64,000 nt of DNA from Spirochaetota bacterium. GTDB taxonomy: Bacteria > Spirochaetota > UBA4802 > UBA5550. The stretch lies in NCBI GenBank assembly GCA_036848375.1, contig DAIUKG010000006.1:44941-108940 (forward strand), given 5' to 3'. Within the stretch, counting starts at the first letter, position 1. Each line of letters begins with the position of its first letter. The notes under the pieces were generated by a model that was not told the DNA's origin, did not search any database, and saw only the letters and a list, made by a program, of their open reading frames with translations. Below, piece after piece: positions 1,124 through 57,827 of the stretch. A program made the position numbers and the translations under genes.

Positions 1124-1243
1124 AAGGGAACCTCTATAAATTACATTTCGGATGTTCCCTTGTGGGCACAACCATTGGATAAATCAGGTTTTATCATTTT
1201 TCAATTAATGAAAAAACCTGATTTTTAGAGGTGCCCATAATTT
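1124..1243. repeat. structured ~120-bp repeat, copy 1 (family also at 4711-4828 inverted and 13115-13288)
   Basis: AAGGGAACCTCTATAAATTACATTTCGGATGTTCCCTTGTGGGCAC...AAATCAGGTTTT...AAAACCTGATTTTTAGAGGTGCCCATAAT. Nested inverted repeats: GGGAAC/GTTCCC, GGGCAC/GTGCCC, AAATCAGGTTTT/AAAACCTGATTT, and ACCTCTA/TAGAGGT between the two ends. Confidence 0.8.
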
Positions 1244-1648
1244 ATAGCCGTAGAAAATATAGATATTATTATTTTTCAAGTATTCAAATATTTTACCTGA
1301 TTCCAAGAAATCTAAATATTTTTCTGATTTAATTTTTAGCCATTCAATATCTTTATAATCTATATTACTTTGATCTCCAATATGCTCTATGAATGTTTCT
1401 TCATAAAATAAATTAGTGTTTTTATAGGATACTTTATTTTTATTATTATCATAGGAATAGAACTGACCAATTATTCTTGGTTTATCTTCATTAATTAATT
1501 TTATAGATAAAAACTCAACTTCAAAATCTACTTCATCTAATGAATCAAATAAATATTTCCATTTACTATTATTCATATAGCTATTTAGTTGTTTTTTCAT
1601 AATAAAATAATGAATATAAAAATGACGCTTAACTAAAATTAACCTCAT
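1205..1648 (-). CDS. hypothetical 147-aa protein, AT-rich; the last codons run into repeat copy 1
   Basis: Complete ORF in the six-frame track. ~27% GC and Asn/Lys/Tyr-rich. No recognisable domain. Confidence 0.45.
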   Translation of the reverse strand: MRLILVKRHFYIHYFIMKKQLNSYMNNSKWKYLFDSLDEVDFEVEFLSIKLINEDKPRIIGQFYSYDNNKNKVSYKNTNLFYEETFIEHIGDQSNIDYKDIEWLKIKSEKYLDFLESGKIFEYLKNNNIYIFYGYKLWAPLKIRFFH

Positions 1649-1649
1649 T

Positions 1650-2340
1650 TCATTTTATCACCACACACCCCATGAGGCACAACGCCAGCCCATCAATTAA
1701 CAGCGTTAGTTCTTCGCCAGCACAAACTGTAATCGACTCTATTGAATAGTCAAGGAAATAATGGGTCCCCCCTGTAGGGACCGGTCGCGACCGGTCCCTA
1801 CAGGGGGGACCCTCGACATCATATACCGGGCCCGCACTCTTCCCTCTCCCGATAGCGCGGTCATGGACGACCGTGCTGGGAAGCAACAGGATGTTGCACA
1901 TGCAGGCGCGTCCAGGATGGACAAAAAAGCGCCTGCCTAGTCTGTCAGGATGACAATACGAGCCCCGCACCATAGGTTCATGCCGCGGACGTGACGGAAG
2001 GTTCCGGTTACACTCTTTTCTGAATCCCGTCCGCCGTGAGGCGGACACCTGTCAGGCGTCTGTCTGAGCCGAAAGGAGCATAGCGACGTCGGCGAGTTTC
2101 GCCCGAAGCCCGTCGCGGCGTCTGAGCGACCGCCCTCTCTTTTCGGCCTTTTCTCTGGGCGATGCAGAGAAAAGGCCATCGTGTTCCCGGCCCCGGCAAC
2201 AACCCTCTCACGCCGGTAACGGCGTGCAACAAGCCGGAGGCTTATATTTTAGCTCGTTCCAAAAGCGGCAAACCCCCAACTCGTGTCACGAGTTAAAACA
2301 CCCCGGGCAGGCTGCCCGCATGATTTCCCACCCCTCTTTA
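1650..2340. other. GC-rich (~58%) non-coding block with many hairpins; candidate structured ncRNA or mobile-element remnant
   Basis: All six frames give Arg/Pro-rich nonsense ORFs. Perfect hairpins GTCCGCC-GTGA-GGCGGAC (2028-2045), GGCCTTTTCTCTG-N7-CAGAGAAAAGGCC (2145-2177), CACGCC-GGTAAC-GGCGTG and AACTCG-N5-CGAGTT. There is a sharp compositional jump against AT-rich flanks. Confidence 0.35.
1765..1810. repeat. 46-bp perfect palindrome GTCCCCCCTGTAGGGACCGGTC GC GACCGGTCCCTACAGGGGGGAC, followed by the conserved tail GGACCCTCGACATCAT
   Basis: Read directly from the sequence. The same C6-CTGCAG-G6 core recurs at 2939-2953 and 3636-3685. The tail recurs at 2952-2967. Confidence 0.9.
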
Positions 2341-2375
2341 TTAAACTTTAAGCGAGGAAGGCGAAAAGCAAAACT

Positions 2376-2780
2376 CTATATGAATACAGATGGTGATACC
2401 GAGAATTTTTTTGCTAATAATTTTATTTGTCTTATATTTAATTCTCTTTTGCCATGTAATATTTCAGATACAACACCCTGTGATCCTATTTCACGCAAAT
2501 CTGATTGTTTTAATCCATGTTCAGACATGAGTTCTTTTAAGATGGTCACAACGCCGGGCTGGTTAATTGTATATTTTTCCTCTTCATACTTTTCAATGAG
2601 CAAGCCAATGGTTTCCATGAGAAGAGCCAAAGGATGTTTATCATTATTGCCGACCTCATCGACGAGTTCATCTAATCTTTTACAAAGATTATTATAATCT
2701 TTTTTATTATGGGGCACGCTCAACAGTTCAGCTACTGAAGGCCACAATTTTTCAATGTTTTTTAATTCTGCACTTAACAT
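2376..2780 (-). CDS. higA: HigA-family antitoxin (C-terminal XRE-type helix-turn-helix)
   Basis: 134 aa. The C-terminus QSDLREIGSQGVVSEILHGKRELNIRQIKLLAKKFSVSPSVFI is a typical HTH_XRE. It lies 1 nt downstream of a higB-like reading frame, the HigBA gene order. Confidence 0.7.
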   Translation of the reverse strand: MLSAELKNIEKLWPSVAELLSVPHNKKDYNNLCKRLDELVDEVGNNDKHPLALLMETIGLLIEKYEEEKYTINQPGVVTILKELMSEHGLKQSDLREIGSQGVVSEILHGKRELNIRQIKLLAKKFSVSPSVFI

Positions 2781-2781
2781 T

Positions 2782-2938
2782 TTATTTTTTCCATTTGTTT
2801 TTATTATATTCAGTATGAGTCAAGACATGGCGAATGTATACTATTTTACGATTATAATGAATAGCCGCGATTAATCGATATTTATTACCTCCAATATTAA
2901 AAACGGTTAAATCATTAACAATATCAGCATATGGAAAT
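2782..2938 (-). pseudogene. higB: HigB (RelE/ParE-fold 'killer protein') toxin gene, missing its 5' end; only the C-terminal ~50 codons are recognisable
   Basis: The minus-strand translation ...YADIVNDLTVFNIGGNKYRLIAAIHYNRKIVYIRHVLTHTEYNKNKWKK* matches the HigB C-terminal motif (GGNKYRLI...Y[IV]R.[IL]GTHxEYDK). Upstream the frame runs into the palindromic element at 2939 with no start codon or toxin N-terminal domain. Confidence 0.6.
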
Positions 2939-3060
2939 ATCCCCCCTGCAGGGGGACCCTCGACATCATTTTTCGGCCTACACTCTTTCTCCCCCTTTAC
3001 GTAAAGGGGGCCGGGGGAATTTCTCCTCCACCTCCCCGGCGGCCCTGTGCGCCACTTTTA
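2939..3060. repeat. G/C-palindrome cluster inserted at the 5' end of higB: CCCCCCTGCAGGGGG + GGACCCTCGACATCAT tail, then CCCCCTTTACGTAAAGGGGG (2989-3008) and CCGGGG...CCCCGG
   Basis: The first ~55 nt (palindrome, ACCCTCGACATCAT, ~8 nt, CGGCCYRCACTCTTYC) are colinear with 1795-1850. This suggests a small palindrome-associated repeat or mobile sequence. Confidence 0.5.
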
Positions 3061-3162
3061 AAACTTTTTTTAATTATCCGGGAACCCCCTTCCTGTTCGC
3101 GGGTTAATTATATAAATTCCGGGAGATACGCCCGATTTCAGATAATAAAGGAAATAAATCCC

Positions 3163-3591
3163 ATGAAACACATGATATACCTGCTGTTCGCGCTGGTCCT
3201 TTTCGCGGTCGCCTGCACTGACGAGGAAAACGACGATTACCAGGTAAGGATCAAGACCTTCGGCTATCCGTGCCTTGGGTGGATCGACAGCGATGATGAA
3301 ACGATAACGTTCGCTGCAGACGATTTTGAGGGGGATGACGGCATCTATTACTACACGAAAAACCTCGACAGCCCCGACACGGTAAGCGTGATTGCCCAGG
3401 GATACTACAACAGCGAGTCAGAGTACACCGAAAGCATTTACGTGTCTATTTACGAGAACGACGAGAAGGTAGCGTCAGAAACCGATACCACGAGCATCAC
3501 CTATGACAACGGCGAGGTCGAATATGTGGAAAAGGCGTACGTTTCGCTTGATTACACCTTCGATGATGATGATGACGACGACGATGAGTGA
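3163..3591 (+). CDS. small acidic lipoprotein (signal peptide with AVAC lipobox; C-terminal poly-Asp tail)
   Basis: MKHMIYLLFALVLFAVAC|TDEEN... 142 aa. It ends ...FDDDDDDDDE. GGAAATAAATCCCATG provides a plausible RBS. Confidence 0.6.
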   Translation: MKHMIYLLFALVLFAVACTDEENDDYQVRIKTFGYPCLGWIDSDDETITFAADDFEGDDGIYYYTKNLDSPDTVSVIAQGYYNSESEYTESIYVSIYENDEKVASETDTTSITYDNGEVEYVEKAYVSLDYTFDDDDDDDDE

Positions 3592-3635
3592 AAGCAGTAA
3601 CACCACGGAATTGAGAGAACATGATGTTGGCAATA

Positions 3636-3695
3636 GAATCCCCCCTGCAGGGAACGGGCATGCCCGTTCCCTGCAGGGGGGATTCTATCTTTTTT
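3636..3695. terminator. 50-bp perfect palindrome (GAATCCCCCCTGCAGGGAACGGGC AT GCCCGTTCCCTGCAGGGGGGATTC) followed by a T-run; likely intrinsic terminator, possibly bidirectional
   Basis: A GC-rich stem is followed by TCTTTTTTACT, 45 nt downstream of the lipoprotein gene stop. Confidence 0.6.
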
Positions 3696-3774: not shown

Positions 3775-4644
3775 CTAGTATCTTTTAAACTCGCTTCTGC
3801 CGTAAATATATGACGCGCCGAACTGGTACCCGGCAAAAGCCACGAGGGCGATATTGCGGTGGATGTATGTGGAGATACGTTCGCCCGCGCGATGGTATTC
3901 ATAAAAGAGATTTTCTTTTTTGTTTTCCCTGCGGTTGAGCATGTACACGTCCTTGTCATAAGAATATTCCGTGCCCAGGATCAAAAACGAAAGCGGCCTG
4001 AACTCAAACGCGGTAAAGATTGACGCGACCGGAATATATCTGAACCGAAGGGTAAAATAGTCTTTCGGTTTCCAGACAAGCCGGGTTAACAACCCGAGGG
4101 TGAAGTCAACTTCATCATTTACAAACTTGTAACTGATCATGGGGATAGGTATGGGCAGGCCGATGTTGCGGGTTATCAGCGAAGAGTAGTTGACCCCGAA
4201 GCTGACCGAATGGGGCCCCTCCTGATAAATCTCATAGTACATCGTGGAAGTAATGGCAAAATCATCGAAACTTCTGAACGGCCTGTTGGTATTGTTGGAA
4301 AAACTGAAAAGAAAACTCACCTTGTCAAGATAAAAGCTGAAGGTCTCCTGTATCCGGTACAGCTCGACAGGCACAGGAATGTCCGTTTCGCGATTGGTGT
4401 AGGTAAAAAACAGATAGTTTTTGATTCTCGTGCCGCTGTTCACGTGAAACGTGTCAATGAACGAGGCGTCACAGGCATTGACATCCTCATCAGGGCCTTC
4501 ACTCTTGTGATACAGAAACGTGAGAATGTGGTCCGGCTGTTTTTCTTTTGGGGGGATGTTTTTGTTCTCGTCATCTGCCGTAACCCTGTGGGGAAAGAAA
4601 ATTATGCAGATGATCAGGGCTGTTGTGTAAAATATATGCTTCAT
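3775..4644 (-). CDS. hypothetical secreted protein, possibly an outer-membrane beta-barrel
   Basis: 289 aa from MKHIFYTTALIICIIFFPHRVTA (signal peptide). Alternating hydrophobic pattern with many aromatic residues. It ends ...GRSEFKRY. No family recognised. Confidence 0.5.
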   Translation of the reverse strand: MKHIFYTTALIICIIFFPHRVTADDENKNIPPKEKQPDHILTFLYHKSEGPDEDVNACDASFIDTFHVNSGTRIKNYLFFTYTNRETDIPVPVELYRIQETFSFYLDKVSFLFSFSNNTNRPFRSFDDFAITSTMYYEIYQEGPHSVSFGVNYSSLITRNIGLPIPIPMISYKFVNDEVDFTLGLLTRLVWKPKDYFTLRFRYIPVASIFTAFEFRPLSFLILGTEYSYDKDVYMLNRRENKKENLFYEYHRAGERISTYIHRNIALVAFAGYQFGASYIYGRSEFKRY

Positions 4645-4710
4645 TGACAAGCTCACCTCTCCACTGTCTCACGACTATTGTTACAAGACCCGGGAAGGGT
4701 CAAGATAATT

Positions 4711-4828
4711 TTAAGGGCACCTCTAAAAATCAGGTTTTTTCATTAATTGAAAAATGATAAAACCTGATTTATCCAATGGTTGTGCCCACAAGGGAACATC
4801 CGAAATGTAATTTATAGAGGTTCCCTTA
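4711..4828. repeat. structured repeat copy 2, reverse complement of copy 1
   Basis: AAGGGCACCTCTAAAAATCAGGTTTTTTCATTAATTGAAAAATGATAAAACCTGATTTATCCAATGGTTGTGCCCACAAGGGAACATCCGAAATGTAATTTATAGAGGTTCCCTT is a near-perfect reverse complement of 1124-1243. Confidence 0.8.
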
Positions 4829-4983
4829 AAATTCTGCTTTCACGATTTTCCAAAAGTACCGAAACCAGAACTTCAATTGCCGGGATGCGTGATGACGACG
4901 ACACAAGCCGTGCAGCAGATCAATGCCACGGATGTGACGGACGATACACGTGCACACGAGAGATGTCATCCCCCCTTGCACAT

Positions 4984-5860: not shown

Positions 5861-8800
5861 CTACCAGTCAAACACGTCCTTGTCCCTGTTGTCATAAGCC
5901 GGGAATGATTTACTGATACTTGCAAAGGAATTGACCACCGAAATATCATCGATATCGATGACCTCGGTCGCTCCGGCAACCGTTATCGTTATCGCTTTCC
6001 ACAGGTACTTGCTGCCGGCGCCGCTCGGGAACGAGACCTCCCTGACCATGCCGTACTCGTTGTACACCCTCATGACCACATCAGAAGCATACCAGTTTGA
6101 CTCTGAGTAGTTGTGTACCGAGAACTTGTACACGCCGCCGGCATAATCGCCAACATTTTTGAAGATATTGATCGCCTCGGGCCCGTAGCCTTCGGTCGCG
6201 TCCTGCACCAGGCTCGTGGTCGAGCTGGTCCCGTTGGAATCTCCGCTTGAGCTGTAATACCCGCTGGTCACGGTCTCGTTGAACGACTTCTGGTTGCGGT
6301 AGAACACGTGGAACCGGTTGTTTGTCGGCCCGCCATAACTCGAATCCGTTTCCTGGACCGTATGGCTTGACGGCCCCACAACGTGCAGGTCAAGGTCCCG
6401 AGGATCTGATCCCCACTGCACGGTCACGCGTATCTGGTAGGGGGCGAGGTTCTGGCAGATCGCGATCCTTCCCTGTGCCTCGGCGCCGTCGCGGCCGTCG
6501 ACAACGACATTGTTCTTGGTAAAGGTGTAAAAACCGGATTTGGTCACGCGCAATGAATAGATCCCGGGGTCAACACTGGACATGGTGAAGGTCCCGGTTG
6601 AGGTTGTCGTGTACGTGAACTCGCTTACCTCGTCACCGCTGTAGTCAATGAGCTCAACGACTGCTCCTTCGACATTGTTTCCCCAGTTCGCGTCAACGAT
6701 CTGGCCGGTAATATTCGAAGCAGTGGCGCTGGTCTCGATAATGTAAATTGAACCGCAATCCGTTACTGCTCCATAGGTTACTGAAACGGAGTCCTTTTTA
6801 CCTGAATAGTATCCTGTTTTTTCAACCAGCAGGCTGTACCGGTTCGCGCCGATCGGAACGGTATCGGTAAAGCTGAATGAACCGTCGCTGAGCGTATCGT
6901 CAGTAGCGACAACGGTATCATCATCCGGGTCGTCAGGATCGTTGACGTCGATCAGCGAAACGGTCGCTGCTTCGATCATCTCGGAAGTGTTCAGGCCGTT
7001 CACCACGTGCCCGGTTATTGAGCCGACCACGTCAAGGCCGTCTGAACGATTTCCCCAGCCGCTCCAGTTCCCCAGGCTGTCGCTTACCCTGATGCGGGCG
7101 TAATACTGTGAACCGTCTTCGGTTGAAACCACGTACTGGTGGTGGCCCGCTTCGGTCACGCCGCCTTCGTATACAACACCTGAAAGGCTGAATGAATCAT
7201 CGGTTGAAACCTGGATTTCGGCTTCAGCTATGTCTGAATCGTCAGTCCAGTAAAAATCAACATAAAGGTCAGTGTTATATTCAACACCGTCGTCGTTGAC
7301 GTCCGGCACTGCCGGTGCTTCTTTGTCAACGGTCCAGGTGTAGGTCGCGATGTCCTCATCATCCACCCAGTTGCCCTGCGCGTCACGCCCTTTCACTTCA
7401 AGCACGTACTCGGTTTCAGGGTCGCCGGCAAGGTCGGTGAGAGTCAGGGCAGTCGCCACAGCCGTATCGGCTGACCAGCCAGTCCAGGTTGAACCGTCAG
7501 AGTAACGGTAACTGTAGTGTGAAACGTCAGTGCCGCTTACGCTGAAGGTAAAATCATCGTCAGCGGTGCTCCCGTTCTGGGGCACGGCAGGGTCAGGGGA
7601 TGTCATGGTCAGCGTTACCGACGCAGGCGGCGTCAGGTCAATGGACCATGAATATTCGGTGGCCATAAACTCAGGCTGCCAGTTCGCGCCGTCGTAGCCG
7701 ACTACCGCGATCTCATGGTCGCCTTCGGCCAGCGTTTCAACGATATAGTCGGCGATTTCATAGTCGGTGCTCCATGCGCCGCTGTCAATGCTGTACCTAT
7801 AATGGGTCACGCCGGTGCCGCCGACGCGGATGCCGGTCGAGCTGCTTCCGGTCGGGTCTGCCGGCTTGTTGAACAGTTCGGCAACGGGATACCCGGCAAG
7901 GCCCACGGTCCAGGTATGGGTCGTGGCGGATGACGGGTTCACCACGGAAGCGTCTCCCTGCCAGTTGCCCACGGCGTCTTTGCCGATCACTTCAAGATAA
8001 TAGGTCTCGTCAGGGGTCAGGTCGCTCAGTTCAATGTGCACTGAAACATCGGTCTCATCGCTCCATCCGTCAGCGTCGCCCCCGATCCATGAACCGCCGT
8101 CGATTTTGTACCGGTACTTGTAGGTTACGACCGAATCGCTCTCAGCGGTTTCGGCTTCAACCGTAATATCGGTAAAATTGAAAACACCGTCTTCAGGAAG
8201 GTCGCTCAGCACCGCGATCGGGGCAGTGACGTCCACGACCCAGGAACAGGATGTCGGGGATGAATCGCTCTGCCAGGTCCCGGCGCTGTTCAGGGCGATG
8301 ACGTCAACCTGGTATGATCCGTCTTCGAGGTCTTCAAGTGCGATGTGCTCCGATACCGCTGTCTGCGCGGACCACGATCCGCTGTTCACACGGTACTGGT
8401 ACGCAACGACATTCGTGCCGCCAACGGTAATGTCGGTTGTCTGTGATGCAGTGGATGATGCCGGTGTATTGGAAAGCACTGCCGTAGGGTCGGACGTATC
8501 GATCACCCATGAATACCACTGGGTCGTGTCCTCAAGGGGCTCTGAATACGGCGTTTCATTAAGGGCACGGTCAACACCGATCACGTAAAGGGTATAGGTC
8601 CCGTCACGGTCGAGCACCGCGCTCGTGAGGTTGATATCATCGCTCACCGGGTATCTTCCGGTCCAGGTTCCTTCATCGGTCTCGCCGCCGTAGGTGTAGT
8701 CCAGACGATATCGGTACCAGTACACATCATCCCCGCTCACCGCTATATTCGCGGTTGTCGTGTTCGTCGGGTCATTGGGTAAATTCGAAAGTATGATTGC

Positions 8801-11766: not shown

Positions 11767-12479
11767 TTTTCGGCCGCAATCCCGTTTTTGAATACCTCAA
11801 ATCGTCCGCGCATCAGGAAGGAGCCGAAGTCTATATCGCGGACCACGCTCACGGCAAAATAATCGACGAAATCAGGGCCGAGGCGGGCAGAAAAAAAATC
11901 CCCCTCGTCACGCGGGACAAAAATTTCTTTCACTCACTCGGCCCTTCATCCAGGCACCAGGGCGTGGCCATGAAGATACCCGGCAATGGCGGCAGGGGGG
12001 ATGCTGATCTGCTGCTGCATGCCGCGGCCCGGAAAGGGGTGCTGGTCATGCTCGACCAGATTACCGACCCGCACAACGCAGGGGCGATCATCCGCACGGC
12101 CGAGGCTCTGGGCTGCGACGGGATCGTGATTCCCAAAAGCCATTCATCAGGCATCACGCCGACCGTGATCAAGGCCGCGGCAGGGGCGACGGCCCATATC
12201 GGCATCGCCATGGTCCCCAACGCAGCCGCGTTTATTGACCGCGCCAAAGAAGCCGGGTTCTGGGTGATCGGGACCACTGACCACGGGGACAGGGTCCCGG
12301 ACGGGCTGAACAGTATCAGGCCCGCGCTGGTTATCATCGGAAGCGAAGGGGCCGGGATGCGCAGGCTCACCGAGGAGAAATGCGACTACCGGGTGCGCAT
12401 TCCCCTGAAGGGAAAGGTTTCGTCCCTTAACGCGTCAGTGGCGGCGGGAATTATCCTGTACGAAATAATGAAATCTTGA
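11748..12479 (+). CDS. rlmB: SpoU/TrmH-family RNA 2'-O-methyltransferase, RlmB-like (GTG start overlapping the cysS stop)
   Basis: Motifs VMLDQITDPHNAGAIIRTAEALGCDGIVI, LVIIGSEGAGMRRLTE and LNASVAAGIILYE. The N-terminal IFGRNPVFEYLKS is the RlmB-type substrate domain. Confidence 0.7.
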   Translation: MEDKEIIFGRNPVFEYLKSSAHQEGAEVYIADHAHGKIIDEIRAEAGRKKIPLVTRDKNFFHSLGPSSRHQGVAMKIPGNGGRGDADLLLHAAARKGVLVMLDQITDPHNAGAIIRTAEALGCDGIVIPKSHSSGITPTVIKAAAGATAHIGIAMVPNAAAFIDRAKEAGFWVIGTTDHGDRVPDGLNSIRPALVIIGSEGAGMRRLTEEKCDYRVRIPLKGKVSSLNASVAAGIILYEIMKS

Positions 12480-12875
12480 TTATTTCAGCATCACCAGCGA
12501 CAGTCCTTTAATTTCCTTAAAGTGCTTGTCTCGCGTTATGAGTTGCAGACCGTATTGAATTGCCAGTGCAGCAACCCAAATATCATTTTCGGGGATAGGT
12601 TTGCCTTTCTTTTTCAGTTCACTTTTAAGGCTGCCATATATTTTTGCTGTCTCGATATTATTTTCGAGGATTGAAGAACAGGCAATGAACTCTTCTAATC
12701 TTTTTTTATTCTCATTCTTTCGTAAAGAATTATGAATGCCATAGTACAATTCACCAATAACAGTATTACAAATAAAAATTTCTTTTGCTGTAGTAAGCTT
12801 TTTAATCACTTCCCGGTCATTATTAAAAAGAGCAATAATAATATTTGTATCGAGTAAATACTTACCACTCGCCAT
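12480..12875 (-). CDS. vapC: PIN-domain ribonuclease toxin (VapC family)
   Basis: MASGKYLLDTNIIIALFNND... carries the conserved PIN acidic residues. It overlaps the upstream small gene by ~14 nt. The stop codon abuts the rlmB stop with no intergenic space. Confidence 0.8.
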   Translation of the reverse strand: MASGKYLLDTNIIIALFNNDREVIKKLTTAKEIFICNTVIGELYYGIHNSLRKNENKKRLEEFIACSSILENNIETAKIYGSLKSELKKKGKPIPENDIWVAALAIQYGLQLITRDKHFKEIKGLSLVMLK

Positions 12876-13092
12876 TATCAACCTTCTCACAGCCATCTTC
12901 TATTACTTCAAGAATTTGGTGGGCCTCGGCATCACTTAATGTTCCTGCAAATTTCAATAAATCTTTACCGGATTTACCTTTCGTCTGAACGCTGGCCAAT
13001 GCATGGGCAAAATCCTGTACTTTTTTTTGCAGATCAAGAGGAAGCTTTTCCATATCATTTATCAGCTTCTTTTTAATTTCAGGTCTAATCAT
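12862..13092 (-). CDS. cognate antitoxin (DUF2281-like small protein)
   Basis: 76 aa, ...KLPLDLQKKVQDFAHAL... It sits immediately upstream of the PIN gene and overlaps it, as in type II TA operons. Confidence 0.55.
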   Translation of the reverse strand: MIRPEIKKKLINDMEKLPLDLQKKVQDFAHALASVQTKGKSGKDLLKFAGTLSDAEAHQILEVIEDGCEKVDNGEW

Positions 13093-13114
13093 AAAGCTCC
13101 TCCCGGATTAGAAT

Positions 13115-13288
13115 AAGGGAACCTCTCTAAATAACATTTTTGATGTTCCCTTGTGGGTATCCCGATTCCTTATAGCTATTTAATGAATCGGGAGATAAAT
13201 CAGGTTTTATACCCCTACTAACTCCCCCTATCAGGGGGAGAATAAAAGAGGGGGTTAAAAACCTAATTTTTAGAGGTACCCATAATAA
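13115..13288. repeat. structured repeat copy 3, same orientation as copy 1, expanded by two extra stem-loops
   Basis: It shares AAGGGAACCTCTCTAAATAACATTTTTGATGTTCCCTTGTGGGTA...ATAAATCAGGTTTTAT...AAAACCTAATTTTTAGAGGTACCCATAAT. Inserted hairpins are TCCCGATTC...GAATCGGGA and CTCCCCC-CTATCA-GGGGGAG. The GGGCAC/GTGCCC stem of copy 1 is replaced by GGGTA/TACCC, a compensatory change. Confidence 0.75.
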
Positions 13289-13423
13289 TTAATGTTTACT
13301 GTATTTTACGTTTCTAAAATGACAAATTAAAATTATTAAGTATAAGCTACTATCAGAATTGTTAGTAGTCACTTCTCCTTTTGTAAAGGATATTATTGAT
13401 CATAGAAAAAAATATTATCAGTC

Positions 13424-13468
13424 GCTGCGGGGATTGTGCTGTATGAAATAATGAAATCTTGATTATGC
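13424..13468. repeat. divergent direct duplicate of the last ~45 nt of rlmB (encodes SVAAGIVLYEIMKS*), about 0.95 kb downstream of the real gene end
   Basis: 43/50 identities with 12433-12482. The differences are mostly synonymous (I->V only). This gene-end duplication flanks the vapBC/repeat insert. Confidence 0.8.
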
Positions 13469-53443: not shown

Positions 53444-53507
53444 GTGCTCTGACCCCAGGCAGGTTGGAAACCTGCCCCTCTAGACCACATTATTGTGCTC
53501 TGACCCC
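53444..53507. repeat. intergenic repeat module: 2x GTGCTCTGACCCC flanking the GNRA-loop hairpin GGCAGGTT-GGAA-AACCTGCC
   Basis: Direct reading of the sequence. The same module occurs at 57661-57800. Confidence 0.8.
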
Positions 53508-57660: not shown

Positions 57661-57800
57661 GGGGCTGGCTGGGAACCTGCCCCTGCAGGCCCCATATATT
57701 ATGCTCTGACCCCCTGAAACGGTGCTCTGACCCCCGATTATCCGCACGAATGATTTGCTCTGACCCCAGGGCAGGTTGAAAACCTGCCCCTACGGACCCC
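57661..57800. repeat. intergenic repeat module: 3x (G)TGCTCTGACCCC plus GNRA hairpin GGCAGGTT-GAAA-AACCTGCC and a related GGGAACCTGCCCCTGCAGG
   Basis: Direct reading. It lies in the divergent promoter region between the KS gene and the 57978 gene. Confidence 0.8.
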
Positions 57801-57827
57801 CATTATCTGCTGTTTTTTACCTCTTTC

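Follow-up and report, generated by a model that had tools for sequence, protein, structure and literature searches.

The repeat at positions 13117–13281 of the window (the whole stretch of 64,000 nucleotides analysed here) is best explained as the third local copy of a MITE that duplicates the tetranucleotide WTAA at its insertion site, is moved in trans, and keeps its internal hairpins most likely because they serve its own propagation. We assign this reading as a whole a probability of about 0.78. The combination of terminal inverted repeats, a WTAA duplication and identical copies dispersed over many sites identifies the family as a MITE rather than as an sRNA gene, an attC site or an IS200-type element. 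MITEs are defined by terminal inverted repeats of at least 10–15 bp, target-site duplications of 2–10 bp, a length of 50–800 bp and a mostly intergenic location, and they are abundant in the genomes of Spirochaetes (PMC11602168); stable folding is one of their classic features (PMC3184786). The family described here has terminal repeats, a 4-bp duplication and a small size without a transposase gene, and it occupies many unrelated intergenic sites. It has no match in Rfam or in plasmid and phage records and appears to be undescribed.

Three copies of the repeat in the window

By profile search, the window contains three copies and no more, at 1126–1236 (plus strand), 4715–4825 (minus strand) and 13117–13281 (plus strand). 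An earlier reading made from the sequence alone (hereafter, the sequence-only reading) had described positions 13115–13288 as a third repeat copy, and alignment with the two other copies bears this out. Copies 1 and 2 align as identical 111-nt cores in opposite orientation, the former flanked by ATAA (1122–1125 and 1237–1240) and the latter by TTAA (4711–4714 and 4826–4829). Copy 3, whose profile match covers model positions 1–110, measures 165 nt and consists of the same 111-nt core with two substituted hairpin modules; it is flanked by ATAA at 13113–13116 and 13282–13285. Its left terminal inverted repeat reads GGGAACCTCTCTAAAT (13117–13132, plus strand) and its right one, on the minus strand, GGGTACCTCTAAAAAT (13266–13281); both ends of all three copies follow the pattern GGGNACCTCTNNAAAT. 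The 12-mers and the terminal 16-mer of the repeat are strongly over-represented within the window.

Read along the plus strand, copy 3 begins with the hairpin H1 (13117–13150) of the family consensus, in which GGGAAC (13117–13122) pairs with GTTCCC (13145–13150). It is followed by the 5' strand of helix H2 (13155–13160), by a private extra hairpin (13160–13193) and by the long helix H3 (13197–13269), which encloses an apical module termed G5 (13211–13255); the 3' strand of H2 (13276–13281) is at the same time the right terminus of the element. The H3 stem AAATCAGGTTTT (13197–13208) / AAAACCTAATTT (13258–13269) forms 11 of 12 pairs, with a single C.A mismatch. The H2 strands read GGGTAT and GTACCC, as opposed to GGGCAC and GTGCCC in copies 1 and 2, so that one pair has changed from C-G to T-A on both sides and the sixth pair is a T.G wobble. 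The two-sided replacement of GGGCAC/GTGCCC by GGGTA/TACCC, which the sequence-only reading had put forward as covariation, is therefore real in copy 3, and it recurs at another insertion site (s26) as GGGTAC/GTACCC.

The two additional perfect hairpins that had been described at loop positions are likewise present, one with 9 bp in the internal loop and one with 7 bp in the apical loop. In the first, TCCCGATTC (13160–13168) and GAATCGGGA (13185–13193) enclose a 16-nt loop and stand in place of the internal-loop sequence CAACCATTG; this hairpin is confined to one locus, represented by the window and by contigs of the same strain, and a resemblance to it at another locus (L074) turned out to be a chance match within coding sequence. 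In the second, CTCCCCC (13222–13228) and GGGGGAG (13234–13240) enclose TATCA within an outer CCCCT/GGGGG stem and replace the apical loop; this module recurs in 13 elements. Compared with shuffled sequences, copy 3 folds with z-scores of −6.0 and −7.3, one for each strand, and the z-scores of the elements range from −5.5 to −7.3 over both strands.

Terminal repeats and target-site duplication

The element ends in imperfect 16-nt terminal inverted repeats, GGGAACCTCTATAAAT on the left and ATTTTTAGAGGTGCCC on the right (which reads GGGCACCTCTAAAAAT on the other strand). They match at 14 of 16 positions in each window copy and are conserved across the 73 distinct insertion sites collected here. 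Immediately outside these repeats, 59 sites carry ATAA on both sides and 11 carry TTAA on both sides, while the remaining three are discordant by a single base; the variable base W is identical on the left and on the right in 71 of the 72 sites with A or T (Fisher's test, p = 4e-12). TTAA flanks are present in every subfamily, next to ATAA-flanked siblings with an identical interior, and the WTAA flank is therefore duplicated target DNA and not element sequence. Since the flank and the terminal repeat on the right side lie outside both patterns with which the copies were retrieved, their conservation is not an artefact of ascertainment. The target extends further outwards in a loosely palindromic manner, with T at −4 in 53 and A at +4 in 55 of the 73 sites, corresponding to a symmetric TnnnWTAAnnnA. 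At about six sites, the upstream gene has its stop codon in the TAA of the duplication.

ATAA is found at about 83% of the sites and TTAT never, even among 13 copies that were retrieved without the flank in the search pattern. This fixed orientation is not predicted by a symmetric DDE insertion and counts against the MITE explanation. Empty insertion sites were sought with junction queries against all retrieved loci, and none was recovered: the contigs that carry the genes adjoining copies 2 and 3 all belong to the same strain and contain all three copies, and homologues of the VapC encoded next to copy 3 share at most 69% identity beyond the self-match, which leaves no close relative of the vapBC cassette for such a comparison. 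Because no empty site was recovered, we infer the exact boundary between element and duplication, and the invariant TAA could formally belong to either.

Distribution of the family

Copies outside the window were retrieved by scanning a genome collection with an internal pattern and a metagenome collection with a left-end pattern. The former yielded 10 copies on nine contigs of the MAG 'Spirochaetes bacterium RA.bin95', the latter 112 stretches, mostly from anaerobic-digester samples. A profile search of all retrieved DNA gave 146 matches, which, after removal of the same locus recurring in several samples, represent 73 distinct insertion sites with unrelated flanks. These belong to Spirochaetota MAGs and anaerobic-digester metagenomes (the window itself is 100% identical to a 271-kb contig, Ga0116244_10000023), and the element's host is a digester-derived lineage of Spirochaetota. 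No match to the element was obtained by BLAST against plasmid and phage records or in a scan of viral contigs. All 73 insertions are intergenic, in AT-rich surroundings, and none lies inside an ORF. In size, the elements comprise the 111-nt core and variants of 139 to 319 nt, without any ORF or coding capacity.

One identical 111-nt sequence is found at at least 10 unrelated sites and a second variant at eight, which points to recent bursts. The sequence-only reading had held that the family is selected for structure rather than being a decaying remnant. As a description of a recently active MITE, this stands; as a statement about every copy, it does not, since truncated and decayed copies occur as well. 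In the RA.bin95 MAG, two copies in the same orientation lie 225 bp apart (L002, 3656–3996), one flanked by ATAA and the other by TTAA. Several independent assemblies (L137, L138 and L139) end inside or right at copy 2, so the repeat fragments metagenome assemblies of this organism.

Two helices are kept by paired substitutions

For an analysis of the fold, 42 distinct core sequences were aligned, a consensus was derived with RNAalifold, and pair counts were compared with those in 500 column shuffles and in slid registers. The consensus consists of two adjacent hairpins: H1, formed by GGGAAC/GTTCCC, and a second one, in which H2, formed by GGGCAC/GTGCCC, closes H3, a 16-bp helix built on AAATCAGGTTTT/AAAACCTGATTT. 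Over the 42 sequences, 98% of the cells are paired, and seven of the 28 pairs show two-sided changes, in 35 cells. This was matched in none of the 500 shuffles, and no slid register came close. The earlier claim that the family's structure is conserved by base-pair-preserving substitutions thus holds, and the covariation is real for two helices, H2 and H3, which are kept by paired substitutions between subfamilies.

In H2, columns 43/111 change from C-G to U-A in site s26, resulting in a perfect GGGTAC/GTACCC helix by the same change as in copy 3, and columns 45/109 hold C-G in 33 sequences, U.G in five, U-A in four and C.A in none. H3 contains five co-varying pairs, two of which are adjacent and separate family A (TTTT/AAAA) from family B (AGTT/AACT); the other two-sided changes are independent and occur in s30, s36 and s71. 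In total, we count about six or seven independent covariation events. H1 is invariant across the alignment and never co-varies, so that covariation neither supports nor refutes it; its conservation is partly an effect of ascertainment, given that both search patterns lie within the H1 region.

The sequence-only reading had further proposed two long-range pairings, ACCTCT/AGAGGT between the two ends of the element and AAATCAGGTTTT/AAAACCTAATTT. Both complementarities are present in copy 3, the former with ACCTCT at 13121–13126 and AGAGGT at 13271–13276, but only the latter is part of a co-varying helix. When the end-to-end pairing is scored as a 16-pair helix, 477 of the 500 shuffles do as well, and its six ACCTCT/AGAGGT pairs show no two-sided change and are broken in exactly the four sequences in which a G to A change restores H2. 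We therefore rejected it as a selected helix; the similarity is the inner part of the 16-nt terminal inverted repeat. As AGAGGT overlaps the GTGCCC strand by two bases, the two pairings cannot form simultaneously. Substitutions in the right terminus are accompanied by matching ones in the internal GGGCAC but by none in the left terminus, whose GGGAAC is unchanged, and it follows that a real intrastrand complementarity is maintained there. Such pairing of a terminus with the interior has no known need in a cut-and-paste MITE, and this, too, counts against the MITE explanation.

Paired substitutions could also accumulate in a MITE whose helices are not under selection, if one arm of an extruded hairpin templates the correction of the other, i.e. 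by quasi-palindrome correction or gene conversion, with neutral outcome. H1 and the G5 module are in keeping with such a process, as they are only ever broken and never compensated, and most of the two-sided changes trace back to a few subfamily-founding events. The loops and internal loops, however, diverge freely, while 98% of the stem cells remain paired across subfamilies that each multiplied, and in several independent lineages the stems have persisted although unrelated modules took the place of their loops. Arm correction alone leaves unexplained why only variants that kept their stems proliferated, and we consider this account rather unlikely. The co-varying differences separate subfamilies, each of which has multiplied. 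Where selection is invoked, the most economical account is that the helices contribute to the propagation of the element.

DNA or RNA

The elements fold about equally well on either strand. Likewise, the mismatches within their helices are distributed evenly, with 14 G.T cells (of five kinds) and 13 A.C cells (of ten kinds), the latter being the wobbles of the other strand; this balance and the equal folding of the strands would fit a strand-symmetric process at the DNA level, such as the neutral correction of hairpin arms discussed above. Relative to the neighbouring genes, 18 copies are co-directional, 19 anti-directional, 17 between divergent and seven between convergent genes, and relative to the local GC skew, the two orientations are found 30 and 31 times. 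No sigma-70-type promoter or intrinsic-terminator consensus was found inside the copies. The covariance-model search of Rfam, which the sequence-only reading had suggested as a check, was run on the window and on the elements and gave no family at the gathering score (Rfam 15, with zero matches over the whole window). At permissive E-values, the elements and positions 1500–3300 of the window returned nothing credible, and on the elements only hairpin matches at chance level; the best score there was 25.4 bits for Bacillaceae-1, against a threshold of 35, and fell within a module of the long variant L105.

These results bear on the possibility that the repeat is primarily a structured RNA, either an sRNA gene or a cis-acting processing site, stabilizer or terminator, which is selected at the RNA level and was dispersed secondarily. 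It would account for covariation with G.U intermediates, as observed at columns 45/109 and 71/87, and for the very stable predicted folds; the long variants contain hairpins with CAUCCUG/CAGGAUG loops, and there is a precedent in bcr1, which is transcribed and has a cruciform-like RNA structure (PMC3184786). It is at odds, however, with the random orientation towards genes, the equal frequency of G.T and A.C mismatches, the lack of promoter or terminator consensus inside the copies and of an Rfam family at threshold, and with the target duplications and identical copies, which show dispersal by transposition. In the absence of a strand signal, of a promoter or terminator consensus and of an Rfam match, neither an sRNA gene nor a cis-RNA element of fixed orientation is supported, and the sRNA identity that had been among the suggestions is not borne out. 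We regard the structured-RNA explanation as improbable; to judge from the sequences, an RNA role of the element is unproven.

Propagation and the missing partner

In the MITE explanation, a transposase supplied in trans would cut with a 4-bp stagger at WTAA within TnnnWTAAnnnA; it would behave in an IS5-like manner, with its gene residing elsewhere in the genome. Since every subfamily that multiplied keeps the helices, propagation itself most likely depends on the hairpins, which might serve, for example, in end recognition, in synapsis or in a folded single-stranded stage, whereas any effect on neighbouring genes upon co-transcription would be a by-product.

The sequence-only reading had also considered a structured recombination substrate following IS200/HUH or integron attC logic. 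Hairpins could indeed mark a substrate for single-strand or site-specific recombination, be it an IS200/IS605-derived palindrome, a REPIN moved by an HUH enzyme or an attC-like site: the element has subterminal hairpins, its right terminus pairs with an internal segment, and it inserts in an orientation-specific manner at an asymmetric tetranucleotide, ATAA and never TTAT. Against this stand the terminal inverted repeats and the true 4-bp flank duplication, both of which are absent from IS200/IS605 and REP elements, the lack of a GTAG/CGTC head, and the lack of bias towards either the gene strand or, as judged by GC skew, the replication strand (30:31). IS200/IS605-derived elements insert 3' of a fixed tetra- or pentanucleotide and do show such a replication-strand bias. 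In regard to attC, the RYYYAAC/GTTRRRY core sites are absent from both strands of the consensus, and the copies are single and dispersed in both orientations instead of forming arrays of like-oriented cassettes adjoining intI. Both suggestions thus fail, and we consider a recombination substrate of any of these kinds highly improbable.

The autonomous partner expected of a WTAA-duplicating MITE would carry GGGNACCTCTAWAAAT at its inverted ends. In 1.18 Mb of retrieved loci, no element of 0.7–3 kb between matching terminal repeats was found, and an all-against-all BLAST of the same loci revealed no IS-like bounded repeat. A low-GC stretch at 30–47 kb of the window encodes an ATP synthase operon, sensor kinases and other housekeeping genes, and no transposase. 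The sole transposase noticed near a copy belongs to an IS3-family insertion, which was rejected as a partner because its ends are unrelated. This element, with HTH_Tnp_1 and rve ORFs, is located at 6729–7882 of locus L133 in another MAG of the same strain (GCA_040774325.1, JAXGUN010000054.1), where it splits the orthologue of a 293-aa ORF of the window (3775–4656).

Loop modules and long variants

The loops of the element vary freely and tolerate swapped-in hairpin modules, two of which are carried by copy 3. The G5 module (CTCCCCC-N5-GGGGGAG) replaces the apical loop in its 13 elements across several subfamilies; it is only ever found inside elements, in both orientations (reversed in L032). 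Longer variants of 175–319 nt contain further hairpin cassettes, which end in CAGCAG and are placed either behind TGG in the loop of H1 or in the interval from H1 to H2. These variants (L059, 2190–2364; L096, 299–561; L074, 9359–9677; L105, 123–371; L032 and L061) have cassettes of a common shape: many consist of an outer stem and an inner hairpin whose loop reads C-ATCCT-G (CAGGATG in the complementary strand), followed by an A/T run of 4–6. One cassette stem shows a compensatory change of its own (TCGAAACC/GGTTTCGA versus TCGAAGCC/GGCTTCGA), and hairpins with the C-ATCCT-G pentaloop are 5–15 times more common in the retrieved loci than hairpins with control loops. We presume a resemblance of the CAGGAUG/CAUCCUG cassette loops to CsrA-type GGA sites.

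A more far-reaching idea is that the hairpins act in an asymmetric transposition pathway, for which the fixed orientation of ATAA and the terminus-to-interior pairing would be signs, and that the element is a mobile scaffold that acquires small hairpin cassettes and spreads them. We judge this decidedly improbable. If it were true, and if the elements are transcribed, the CAGGAUG/CAUCCUG cassettes would seed sites for RNA-binding proteins across the intergenic regions of these spirochaetes.

Comparison with known systems

The closest parallel is bcr1 of the Bacillus cereus group, a transcribed repeat with a cruciform-like structure that is kept by compensatory changes (Klevan et al. 2007, reviewed in PMC3184786). 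Like the spirochaete element, it is small (about 155 bp), non-coding and dispersed, is flanked by short direct repeats, and has a distribution that is not conserved between relatives; in both, compensatory changes maintain a multi-hairpin structure. They differ in that bcr1 has 5-bp direct repeats and is transcribed, whereas in the spirochaete element the duplicated WTAA measures 4 bp, and the two sequences are not similar. Structured MITEs with compensatory changes are thus already on record, and the present family adds to a known class.

Correia elements possess repeats of 26 bp as well as an IHF site and promoters; in the spirochaete element, the search for a promoter consensus was negative. 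The Correia/NEMIS elements of Neisseria and ERIC-type elements share with it an intergenic location, a length of 100–160 bp, terminal inverted repeats, multiple copies and strong folding, and they also form size variants through internal segments (PMC3184786), but they have TA flanks in place of the 4-bp WTAA duplication and the 16-nt repeats found here.

IS5 duplicates the 4-bp sequence 5'-YTAR-3', which includes TTAA (PMC5009759), and a 4-bp, TA-centred target duplication is common to the IS5 group and the present family. However, ATAA, the target at 83% of the sites, falls outside YTAR, and no IS5-type transposase or matching full-length element was found in the retrieved loci, so that the link to IS5 is an analogy only. 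REPs are 20–40 nt long with a GTAG/CGTC head and without target duplication (PMC3733652). With these RAYT-mobilized REPs and REPINs, the spirochaete element shares the character of a short, intergenic palindromic repeat with evolutionarily kept hairpins; it differs from them in its terminal repeats and duplication and in having no GTAG/CGTC head.

Consequences and genomic surroundings

In annotation, the appropriate treatment of the copies is to mask them as MITEs instead of predicting sRNA genes. They can also alter the ends of genes. An ORF of the DUF6678 family (1205–1648, minus strand) extends 36 nt into copy 1, which provides its last 11 codons and stop; the reconstructed empty site would end this ORF two codons past the insertion point (...KLY*), and the insertion therefore rewrote its C-terminus. 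As a clean natural data set, the family offers over 70 sites in several subfamilies, together with paired substitutions and exchangeable loop modules, and it lends itself to asking whether internal hairpins are required for the propagation of a MITE and why it inserts in a fixed orientation at an asymmetric 4-bp target. Specialists may find its orientation-specific target, the pairing of a terminus with the interior and the swappable hairpin cassettes of interest; by itself, the family opens no long-standing question.

Copies 1 and 2 enclose 3.5 kb with the DUF6678 ORF, an HTH_3 gene, a lipoprotein gene and the 293-aa ORF. As the flanks match within each copy (ATAA/ATAA for copy 1, TTAA/TTAA for copy 2), the two are independent insertions without a later inversion between them. 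Copy 3, in turn, lies within a 983-bp segment that is bracketed by a 49-nt direct repeat (12435–12483 and 13418–13466, 88% identical), which comprises the last 45 nt of a SpoU/rlmB-like gene and four further nucleotides. Besides the copy, the segment holds a vapBC-like toxin-antitoxin pair (12480–13092, minus strand), whose nearest VapC elsewhere is only 69% identical, and no recombinase; it looks like a cassette that entered the methylase gene at its 3' end and duplicated that end.

Other small repeats occur between copies 1 and 2. Positions 1650–2330 and 2930–3100 are GC-rich, lack a convincing ORF or a matching Rfam family, and contain small repeats in common with loci L098, L028/L079, L024, L017 and L065. 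They include a perfect palindrome with a 25-bp stem (1762–1813) and, at about 1885–1955 on the plus strand, three successive hairpins with CAGGATG loops (GCAACAGGATGTTGC, GTCCAGGATGGAC and TGTCAGGATGACA), which we likewise take to resemble CsrA-type GGA sites. Between convergent genes, positions 3633–3688 form a perfect, GC-rich palindrome of 56 nt with a run of T behind it, which probably serves as a bidirectional terminator. Its similarity (82%) to the palindrome at 1762–1813 and to another in L017 suggests that it may be a member of a further family of small repeats. Yet another short palindromic repeat, consisting of GGCAGGTTGGAAACCTGCCCC and a tail, is present in three copies at 53453–53499, 57663–57695 and 57765–57811 of the window (families D4 and D9).
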